Source: Mechercharimyces sp. CAU 1602
Lineage (GTDB): Bacteria; Bacillota; Bacilli; Thermoactinomycetales; JANTPT01
Length of the DNA stretch: 32,000 nt
Assembly (NCBI RefSeq): GCF_024753565.1
Contig: NZ_JANTPT010000001.1
Span: forward strand, 870,513 to 902,512
Direction: 5' to 3'
How positions within the stretch are numbered: the first letter of the stretch is position 1; each line of letters begins with the position of its first letter. Shown piece after piece: positions 20,001 to 28,693 of this stretch. The notes beneath the pieces are model-generated. The model was not told where the DNA came from. It searched no databases and worked only from the letters and a program-made list of their open reading frames with translations. The position numbers and the translations under genes were made by a program.

Positions 20001-23000
20001 CGACGGGAGCGGGTACCGCCTTGACGGCCAACCTGTTTGAAGGCAACACGATGTTTGACTATACCCCGTTTGCCAATCCTTCCCGCGGTTTTGCCACGGC
20101 TCCGCAGATGACCTATAACAGCCGCGACTTCTCTGACTCGCTCGTCGGACCCGGCTGGTCGTTTGCCTTGACCAACATGATGCGCCTGGGCACGCCGTCC
20201 AACAGTAAAGGCGTGAAGATGGTGAACGGCAAGATCGAATCAGGCAAAGTGTTTATGATTGACGGGGACGGTACCCAGTATTCGTTCACCTACGATAAAG
20301 GGAAGAAGAAATTCGTCGGCCCCAAAGGCATTCATTTGAGCCTGAAGCTGCATTCGACGAAGGACAAAGCCCGCATGTGGAAGATTACCGCCAAGGACGG
20401 TTCCAAGTATTACTTCGACGACAAAGGCTACGTGAGTGAAACGACCGATCGCAACGGCATCAAGATGACATATACGTACGAAAGTCGCCGCATCGGCAAC
20501 CACAATGTGAAATTGCTGCGCTACTTAACCGATACGGAAGGGCGCCGCACCATCAAAGTGGAGTACTACAGTAGCAAGGAAACCAGCAACCTGAAAATCC
20601 AACAGCAAGTGAAGCGCCTCACGGATATTTCGGGCTACAAAGTGGAATTTGCCTATGATCACGAAGGGCGCCTCACCCAGATTACGGAAGGGGCAGGATC
20701 GAAAGAGGAGCGTAAGTACCAGTTATCGTATGAGTTTAACCTCTTACGCACCATTACCGACCCCAAAGGGAACACCACCAAAGCGTATTATGACGATGGC
20801 GGACATTTGACGAAAATCATTGATCGCCAAGGGGAAGAGACAACGATTCATTACCGCACCACCCTCGATGACAAGGAACAGCCGGTCACCTTGGTGACCG
20901 ATCCGATGGGCCGCCAGATGGCGACCACCTTTAACGATCAAGGCAAGCCCATCGAAGTGGTGAATGCCAACAACGAAAAAACCCGCTATGAGTGGGACGA
21001 TGAGCTAAATCTCGTCAAACAGATCGCCCCCAATGATGCGACGGCGACCTGGACCTACGATGACAACGGCAATGTGCTCACCTACAAGAGCCCCCTCTAC
21101 CACCAGCAGCAACAAGCGCAGCAGCAAGCCGCGGAAGAGGCCAATGTGCTGGAGAAGTTGTGGGACAAGGTGACGGGAGCAGTAGAGAAAGCGCCTCTCG
21201 TCGGCACAGCGGGAACAACAGGCAAAGGCTACACGCAATACGCCTATGACTACCGCGAAGAGGGGCAAGTGGCCGACTTGGTGCAATCCGTCTCACCGGA
21301 AGGACGGGTTACCACCTATGAATACAACGATGAAGGCCATTTGCTCAAGGTACATGCCCCACAAGGCAATACCCTCTCCTCTTATGACGACGCGAAGAAG
21401 CGCTACCGCGTCGAGACGAGCGGAAACTATACCACCACCTATACGTACCACAAGGGCGGGCTCGGTCTACTGGAATCGGTCAAAGATGCCAAAGGGCGCG
21501 TCAGTCGCTATACCGATTACGATGCCAATGGACAACCGCAAACGATCACCGATCCGGCGGGCAATGTGACCCGTCTCCACTACGGGAAACGCGGGGAAGT
21601 GTTGCAAGTGACCGATGCGCTCGGCAACACCAGCACCTACACCTACGACACCTTCCTGCGTCCCTTGACGAGTAAGGTGCCTAAGGATGCGAGCGCCGGG
21701 GAGTATATCACGATTCCGGCACCGGTTTATGACGAGAACGATAACATTGTCAAAGCCGTCTCGCCCAACGGAGCCCACGTGACCTACACGTACAACAAGA
21801 ACGATTGGGTTACGTCCGCTACCCTTCCCAAGGATAGCGAAAAGGGACCGATACGGAAAATCACGTATCAATATGATAAGATGGGCAACCTGATCCGTGA
21901 GACCCAGCCGAAGGGGAATCACCAAGAAGGGGTGATCACCCTCGATAACCGGGATGACGCTCATATAGCCAGTGGCATTTGGGGAACATCTACCAACATG
22001 CCAGGGTATCGCGGGGAGGATTACCAGTACAACCGTGTGGGCGGTGGGGACACCTTCACGTGGAACTTTCAGCTTCCCGAGGACGGAGAGTACCGCGTCT
22101 CGGTCAACTATGCCCAAGCGCGGGATCGCGCCATCGATGCTCCGTACACGTTGAAAACAAAGGATGGCGACGTGACCAAACGGGTGGATCAAACCACCAA
22201 TGGCGGCACCTGGGTGGACCTTGGTATTCATCCATTTGCCAGCGGAGCCAACCAGATTGTGCAATCCGACGATGCCAGTGAAGGCACTTACGTGATTGCC
22301 GATGCGATTCGCATCGAAAAAGTGAACGAAGGCGAAGAGAAAAAAGAGACAGCAGATGGCAGCACCCAGTATATTTACGATCGCCTCAACCGCGTGCAAG
22401 CCGTGGTCAATAGTCAAGGTCACCGCGTGACGTATGAGTATGACCAGGTTGGAAACGTCACCCAGGTGACCGAACCGAAGGGAGTCGCCAGCGACGATCC
22501 CGATGATTATCGCACGACCTACGAGTACGATGTGAATGGACGCGCGATCAAGGAAACGGATGCGCTCGGAAATAGCATTGCCTTTGCGTACAGCCCCGAT
22601 GGACTGCTTACGCGCGTCACGGACGAAGAGGGAAATGTGACGACCGCCAGCTATGATCAGAACGGCAACCTGATCGAAATGCGGACGCCGCATGACGACG
22701 GGGAAAACGTGACCCAGTATGTGTATGATCAGGTGGGCAACTTGACGGAGACAATCACCCCCCGGGGCGTCGCCACGAGTGCCAAGGGCGACTATACGCA
22801 CAAGACGATCTACGATGAGCTGGATCGCGTCAAAGAAGTGATCTATCCACGGGATCCCAACAGCCAAGATCCACGCGAGCGAGAAGAGCAGAAGCTTTCG
22901 TATGAGTACGATCCGCTCAGCCGGATCACGGACATCATCGCACCGGCATCCGAAGGACAAGCCCTTCGGAACCAAACGAAGCTGACGTACTTCGATAACG

Positions 23001-28693: not shown

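Follow-up and report, generated by a model that had tools for sequence, protein, structure and literature searches.

We characterized the product of one long gene of Mechercharimyces sp. CAU 1602 (Thermoactinomycetaceae) by examining a 32,000-nucleotide stretch of contig NZ_JANTPT010000001.1, referred to here as the window, whose own numbering is used throughout. A single open reading frame (ORF) at 17075–28693 on the plus strand encodes a 3872-amino-acid (aa) protein, a Gram-positive WapA-like, Sec-exported RHS polymorphic toxin. The YD-repeat shell of this protein is interrupted at two sites by Golvesin_C domains, five in all, and sequence comparisons indicate that two of the five, and probably a third, are in turn interrupted by a circularly permuted YndA-like domain. 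All of the inserted domains lie within this one ORF, and all coordinates given for them and for the shell are on the plus strand.

From the N-terminus, the protein consists of a Sec-type signal peptide (read by eye), two DNRLRE domains, a DUF6531-like plug, RHS/YD repeats, an Rhs core, a PT-HINT domain and a 96-aa tip. The DNRLRE domains (NF033679, two stretches, E 4.8e-61) are encoded at 18122–18622 (aa 350–516) and at about 19001–19576 (about aa 643–834). The YD repeats (PF05593, nine stretches, E 2.6e-81; TIGR01643, E 3.3e-50) form three blocks: block A at 20030–21922 (aa 986–1616), which starts with the plug, block B at 22358–23176 (aa 1762–2034), and block C, including the Rhs core, at 26081–27514 (aa 3003–3480). 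The plug region scored 19.2 bits against PF20148 (DUF6531), under the cut-off of 24.1; it is conserved with homologues that carry PF20148 and keeps the NLxxGN-type motif of the homologue consensus. The Rhs-associated core (TIGR03696, aa 3384–3478, 43.2 bits versus a cut-off of 32.5) precedes the variable C-terminus, and GRF...D and NPV...ELDGH motifs are seen in its sequence. PT-HINT and toxin are encoded at 28016–28690, the former matching PF07591 at aa 3648–3776 (E 2.4e-32). The tip (28403–28690) matched no family, and its best match among PDB sequences, restrictocin (E 0.085), was not significant.

The Pfam model of Golvesin_C (PF25275) matched the protein in five stretches (E 2.1e-157), here called G1 to G5, and the individual segments scored 131, 106, 97, 114 and 135 bits against a cut-off of 31.6. 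G5 also matched residues 907–1038, the terminal module, of the Paenibacillus nanensis xanthan lyase 6F2P (E 5.7e-20). Both comparisons bear out the original prediction, made from the DNA letters and their translations, that five golvesin-C/Xly-CBD-like domains reside here. G1 (21923–22327, aa 1617–1751, E 3.5e-38), which is followed by an acidic linker at aa 1752–1761, and G5 (25673–26080, aa 2867–3002, E 2.3e-39) both span the whole profile, and the boundaries predicted for these two agree with ours to within a few codons. The predicted double interruption of the shell was also found, with YD repeats before G1, between G1 and G2, and after G5, where they restart at nucleotide ~26090 as had been proposed. 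By contrast, G2, G3 and G4, predicted to be single domains, proved to be composite: each does include a Golvesin_C domain, but each also contains one or more copies of another domain, X. These three segments are 227–362 aa long, and only their final ~100–110 aa match Golvesin_C (profile positions ~25–132); the first β-strand of G2 and of G4 lies ~100 aa upstream of the rest of the domain. Of the foreign sequence, which does amount to about 1100 aa as predicted, only ~675 aa are Golvesin_C and ~415 aa are X. Since the G copies are mutually 30–45% identical at the protein level and long DNA repeats are absent, the five-copy layout is neither an assembly artefact nor a recent duplication.

We do not call the G domains CBM84, a carbohydrate-binding module (CBM) family, as they match the terminal residues of 6F2P. 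CBM84 was defined on a module of a GH9 xanthanase, and xanthan lyase is described in a review as having a CBM84 and, in addition, a further terminal unclassified module (PMC10881899).

X is a ~100-aa unit present in four copies within G2–G4, mostly bounded by CTW...GxC, the copies being 33–48% identical to X1. X1 (23249–23533, aa 2059–2153) is flanked by the first strand of G2 (23177–23248, aa 2035–2058) and the remainder of that domain (23534–23854, aa 2154–2260). Likewise, X3 (25031–25339, aa 2653–2755) is flanked by the first strand of G4 (24947–25030, aa 2625–2652), which is recognizable on its own (E 2.8e-5), and by the G4 remainder (25340–25672, aa 2756–2866). Between these lie X2a (23939–24253, aa 2289–2393) and X2b (24284–24619, aa 2404–2515), the latter without the bounding cysteines; they are preceded by an acidic linker or degenerate first strand of G3 (23855–23938, aa 2261–2288) and followed by the G3 remainder (24620–24946, aa 2516–2624). 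We also considered X as a diverged form of Golvesin_C but rejected this, since the X regions did not match the G profile significantly (E 0.06–2).

As an independent test of nesting, we used a hidden Markov model (HMM) built only from the Golvesin_C domains of homologues. When X was excised in silico, G2 and G4 matched this HMM end to end with scores above those of the native segments, and they likewise spanned the whole PF25275 profile. Because excision restores an end-to-end, higher-scoring match, the comparison puts the X insertion into the loop that follows the first strand of G2 and of G4. X is probably nested in G3 in the same way, although this is uncertain because the homologue HMM does not recognize a first strand there.

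The AlphaFold2 (AF2) model of X3 was all-β with eight strands and of high confidence (predicted local distance difference test, pLDDT, 91.3; predicted template-modelling score, pTM, 0.84), and had no significant Foldseek neighbour in the PDB or in a viral library. X likewise had no match in PDB sequences or in a local Pfam library that does not include the PF27263 model. When 1.84 billion representative proteins were searched exhaustively with a profile, just 40 matched at E < 1e-3, and these fell into two groups, small secreted PF27263 'YndA_coil' proteins and the C-terminal tandem repeats of DUF3238 proteins; none of the 40 resembles an RHS protein, as judged by their lengths and by Pfam scans of eight of them. 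A YndA-like profile made from 17 standalone PF27263-annotated proteins recognized the X copies with E values of 1e-11 to 1e-17 (X1–X3, 6e-11 to 7e-17), and the motifs W..IGED, YEYDPD and KAELYL are common to both. The match was in swapped order, with profile positions 98–131 coming first and 30–88 second. When X was artificially doubled, one full-length unit appeared across the junction at 35–53 bits (51 for X3, 53 for X1). The natural X2a–X2b tandem does the same, with an unpermuted YndA-like unit across its junction (HMM positions 30–130, 48.7 bits, E 4e-16). Given the swapped-order matches and the full-length match across the doubled-X junction, these profile comparisons identify X as a circular permutant of the YndA-like domain (PF27263) rather than a canonical member. 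Thus X shares sequence motifs with YndA-like proteins and the DUF3238 repeats, but its halves are swapped, and it sits inside another domain, whereas YndA-like proteins are free-standing.

X plausibly derived from a tandem array of YndA-like units. At the C-termini of three DUF3238 proteins (P0121–P0123), two to three YndA-like units stand in tandem, and excision from such an arrangement could yield a permuted unit. Outside the window, the same genome encodes P0124, a 139-aa 'hypothetical protein' that matches X better than any other external sequence (E 1.5e-27). P0124 shares the permuted phase of X and lacks an obvious signal peptide; it may be either the source of X or a fragment of a further gene that carries X. 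The gene neighbourhood of another X-like protein, P0163, consists of uninformative housekeeping genes.

We then compared the insertion sites with those of the 120 best-matching homologues (P0001–P0120), in 109 of which the distance to the Rhs core was measured. All 120 combine PF05593 with PF25275, and 'golvesin C-terminal-like domain-containing protein' is already the database name of many. The 120 belong to Streptomyces, Nonomuraea, Micromonospora, Bacillus and Thermoactinomycetaceae. The rarity implied by the original prediction is therefore not borne out, one Golvesin_C in the YD region being the family norm. The homologues have one internal copy, and 55 of the 120 have an additional single copy near the N-terminus. 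The internal domain ends 380–396 aa before the Rhs core in 108 of the 109, and G5 ends 378 aa before it. Since G5 sits at this conserved distance from the core, the site of G2–G5 (site 2) is the ancestral, family-wide insertion point, expanded here from one domain to four. These golvesin-type RHS proteins of Actinomycetota and Bacillota, such as those of Hazenella, Desmospora, Bacillus sp. SA1-12 and Streptomyces, share the single domain at this site and are collinear with the 3872-aa protein over the whole shell, although the latter is ~1100–1900 aa longer.

Site 1, which holds G1, is 283 aa upstream of site 2. In global alignments with P0001, P0002, P0004 and P0012, the sequences flanking G1 were 44–59% identical and only a few residues took the place of G1. 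These alignments indicate that a second loop has received G1 as an additional insertion, at a novel site without a counterpart in homologues. None of the 120 homologues has a second internal site, a tandem array or X, and two scans of genome contigs and one of metagenome contigs found no relatives of the array. The novel features are the second site of insertion, the array of four copies and the YndA-like domain, nested and permuted; decorated YD shells were already known in principle, as was the one-copy architecture of this family, which is experimentally uncharacterized.

In three relatives, P0044 (Croceifilum), P0011 (Paenactinomyces) and P0059 (Shimazuella), Golvesin_C was found only N-terminally, at aa ~460–615, and P0044 and P0059, the two that reach past the internal site, have a shell without Golvesin_C. 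The N-terminal-only location in these Thermoactinomycetaceae implies that the position of the domain is modular within the family.

Do the interrupted YD blocks form one shell? Together, the blocks and the core comprise 1382 aa, roughly the length of a homologue's shell, and the protein has a single DUF6531-like plug and a single Rhs core. When the flanks of the array were joined, P0044, P0011 and P0059 aligned to them continuously, at 39–45% identity. An AF2 model of aa 1000–2058, two thirds of the shell, had a pTM of 0.76, with hairpins on both sides of G1 at pLDDT >90 and block B mostly at >85. The best Foldseek matches of this model in the PDB were Rhs cocoons (RhsA 7Q97, E 4e-41), followed by the T6SS Rhs proteins Tse15 and Tse5, the teneurin-like protein TLP, teneurins, TcB–TcC and SGS1. 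Because the flanks at both sites are collinear with homologues, the blocks add up to one shell length and there is one plug and one core, the evidence points to all YD blocks belonging to one shell. The original prediction had allowed that the blocks might instead form two independent structures, but their flanks are collinear with homologues in which the G1 site is occupied by a few residues and the array site by none.

A version of the alternative, in which the blocks would be two or three separate β-structures, could draw on the Streptococcus suis toxin WapA-CT1, which is cleaved into two Rhs fragments, and on the coverage of our AF2 model, which takes in only part of the shell. We regard it as very improbable indeed, as even the two S. 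suis fragments make up a single barrel when modelled, and it would have to accommodate the summed block length, the contiguous flanks in homologues at both sites and the presence of only one plug and one core. A third, small interruption of the shell at aa 1340–1385 (21092–21229) is rich in Gln and Ala and consists of a predicted 28-residue helix followed by a disordered stretch.

The architecture of the inserts and its evolutionary history can be read from these comparisons, whereas the function of the inserts is what we infer from them. We consider it probable that the protein forms one Sec-exported Rhs cocoon with the inserted domains on its outside, where they would act as multivalent binders of glycans or cell surfaces and attach the container to an envelope. 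A single YD cocoon of ~1380 aa would enclose the C-terminal toxin, with the extra domains spliced into two loops between its β-hairpins. Site 2, which normally receives one Golvesin_C / xanthan-lyase-type CBM-like β-sandwich, would here present four in tandem (G2–G5), of which G2 and G4, and probably G3, would carry the permuted YndA-like β-sandwich X in the loop after their first strand; site 1 would present the additional G1. The inserted domains would be folded, too large for the lumen and dispensable for shell closure. Before toxin release, the liberated container would then attach to the envelope of a bacterial cell, most likely the target cell.

That the inserts most likely lie on the exterior of the shell is suggested by their size, by their being optional for closure and by the N-terminal copies in relatives. 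The cavity of an Rhs cocoon, ~28,000 Å3, holds <25 kDa (PMC8636562), whereas the G2–G5/X array amounts to ~105 kDa. In relatives, Golvesin_C is also found N-terminally, outside the shell region. The exterior placement also has a precedent in mosquito SGS1 (8FJP), whose CBM, lectin domain, propeller and wedge domain are insertions in the YD-repeat sequence that decorate the exterior (PMC9935623).

The insertion of receptor domains into Rhs/YD sequence is structurally documented in SGS1, TcB and teneurins, and here too accessory domains are encoded as insertions within YD-repeat sequence. SGS1, TcB–TcC and teneurins have a decorated shell exterior, which for the present protein is what we would predict, and the insertions of SGS1 include a CBM and a lectin-type β-sandwich. 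They differ in the folds inserted (propellers, an Ig-like CBM, a wedge, NHL repeats) and in their eukaryotic or Tc-complex context, and have no Golvesin_C, no tandem array and no domain within a domain.

G1–G5 are most likely cell-surface glycan binders on a toxin container, with a ligand on either the target or the producer. The terminal module of 6F2P (residues 907–1038) and the IPR033803 domains of the Bacteroides lectins Cbeg4/5 belong to the same domain family as G1–G5, are non-catalytic and have been implicated in polysaccharide or glycan binding; the former is appended to an enzyme and the latter are free lectins, whereas G1–G5 are spliced into a toxin container. Xanthan lyase is described in a review as having a terminal xanthan-binding module, and as losing activity in part when binding modules are deleted (PMC10881899). 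Defined glycans are also bound by isolated domains from the InterPro family to which golvesin and a xanthan lyase belong (PMC9166713).

Whether the ligand would be on the target or on the producer bears on how the container is deployed. With S. suis WapA-CT1 (PMC12704120) and Bacillus subtilis WapA, the 3872-aa protein shares the Sec-type signal peptide, N-terminal DNRLRE, the YD barrel, the Rhs core and orphan cassettes downstream, together with a putative DUF6531-type plug and a putative variable toxin at the C-terminus, after which comes a candidate immunity gene. Unlike WapA-CT1, it has Golvesin_C inside the YD region and PT-HINT before the toxin; our domain-library scans of the protein found no LysM, SLH or CWB2, and no srtB or secF-like genes adjoin the RHS gene. 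Characterized Gram-positive WapA proteins are anchored to the wall by N-terminal modules, and their class, as characterized in S. suis, is Sec-dependent and autocleaved (PMC12704120). With the same architecture, the inserted domains could thus bind wall polymers of the producer itself, holding the container on the producer's surface for contact-dependent delivery, and Golvesin_C would replace the LysM, CWB2 or SLH anchors of other WapA proteins. The lack of such anchors here would fit this, as would the conservation of Golvesin_C at about the rate of the shell, expected for a self ligand, and the Golvesin_C copies of relatives in the N-terminal, wall-proximal region. However, the N-terminal anchor fragment of the S. 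suis protein is cleaved off before the DUF6531 plug, and the NLxxGN-type motif at this position is conserved here, so that an anchor forming part of the shell would remain on the container after its release. We consider binding to the producer's wall unlikely, although it deserves serious weight beside the reading that we favour, attachment of the released container to a target.

Several observations weigh against that favoured reading. In the AF2 model, G1 had a pLDDT of only 20–40, because the rows of the homologue alignment are gapped there. The homologue-only HMM did not detect the first strand of G3. The loop into which X is inserted is the one that bears an aromatic GY.G.DY motif in G1 and G5, and G2 has lost this motif, so some of the copies may not bind sugars in the ancestral way. 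Golvesin_C also evolves only slightly faster than the flanking shell (e.g., 0.49 versus 0.535 identity), which does not support a role as a hypervariable determinant of target range; conservation so close to that of the shell is in keeping with a conserved ligand, or with a structural role, and argues against an arms-race receptor.

A structural role could mean that the inserts have no ligand and serve as struts, or as a gate, that stabilize an unusually large cocoon or regulate its opening. The fixed position relative to the Rhs core in 108 of the 109 homologues, the conservation similar to that of the shell and the 'wedge' of SGS1, an insertion with a structural role, are all compatible with this. 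On the other hand, three natural relatives have no internal domain and yet a shell that is intact and collinear, the domain family belongs to a carbohydrate-binding type, and four tandem copies with a nested domain would be hard to explain as a strut. Altogether, we judge a strut or gate to be quite improbable, and continue to favour exterior binding modules.

The region downstream of the toxin has features of an rhs locus. Directly after the toxin, a plus-strand ORF at 28767–29360 encodes a candidate immunity protein of 197 aa; it has a zinc-ribbon-like CxxC...CxxC motif at its C-terminus and matched no family, giving only weak HypA and zinc-ribbon scores. An orphan toxin cassette follows at 29743–31058, with a near-duplicate PT-HINT region (29743–30111, PF07591 E 5e-20), a tip at 30098–30481 that differs from the main one, apparently in another frame, with a weak GIY-YIG match below the cut-off (E 0.004), and an Imm26 immunity gene (30570–31058, E 4e-14). 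The orphan PT-HINT fragment and the downstream Imm26 gene are consistent with an rhs locus. Further remnants of RHS C-termini (…LSKTGNAG…ETTAFAYL, similar to aa ~3290 of the 3872-aa protein) and HINT-like sequence at 31128–31800 suggest a string of displaced toxin tips. The G+C content is ~42–48% in the flanking housekeeping genes, 50–56% in the YD/G/X core and 36–41% in the toxin tip and downstream cassettes; such stepped G+C is the classical pattern of rhs elements. The surroundings are ordinary chromosome, with ctaA, the rib operon, scpAB and ytfJ. An open frame of 964 aa on the opposite strand of the RHS gene (21467–24361, minus strand) is probably a by-product of biased sense-strand composition. 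Elsewhere in the window, at 6002–8155, a 717-aa protein has DUF7948, six SBBP β-propeller repeats and a collagen-like tail, and adjoins a two-component system and an ABC/FtsX transporter.

Decorated YD shells are known from SGS1, Tc toxins and teneurins, and the one-copy architecture is common, which limits what is novel here. Even so, the 3872-aa protein is the extreme case of its family, with five copies at two insertion sites, and offers a clean natural example of a domain inserted in a domain combined with circular permutation of a YndA-like fold, the unpermuted unit spanning the X2a/X2b junction. In the S. suis study, translocation is called 'enigmatic', and the terms 'golvesin' and 'carbohydrate' do not occur in that paper (PMC12704120). 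As a tentative possibility, the Golvesin_C domain at its fixed position might be the long-sought surface-recognition module of Sec-secreted Rhs/WapA toxins, which here would have become a five-headed adhesin whose composite heads of Golvesin_C and permuted YndA, made by inserting one domain into another, would confer a new or broader target specificity. A CBM-like domain at one fixed cocoon loop across Actinomycetota and Bacillota is a concrete candidate for the target-recognition step, and the way in which Sec-exported Gram-positive Rhs/WapA toxins find and enter their targets thereby becomes testable, for example with recombinant domains of ~135 aa.

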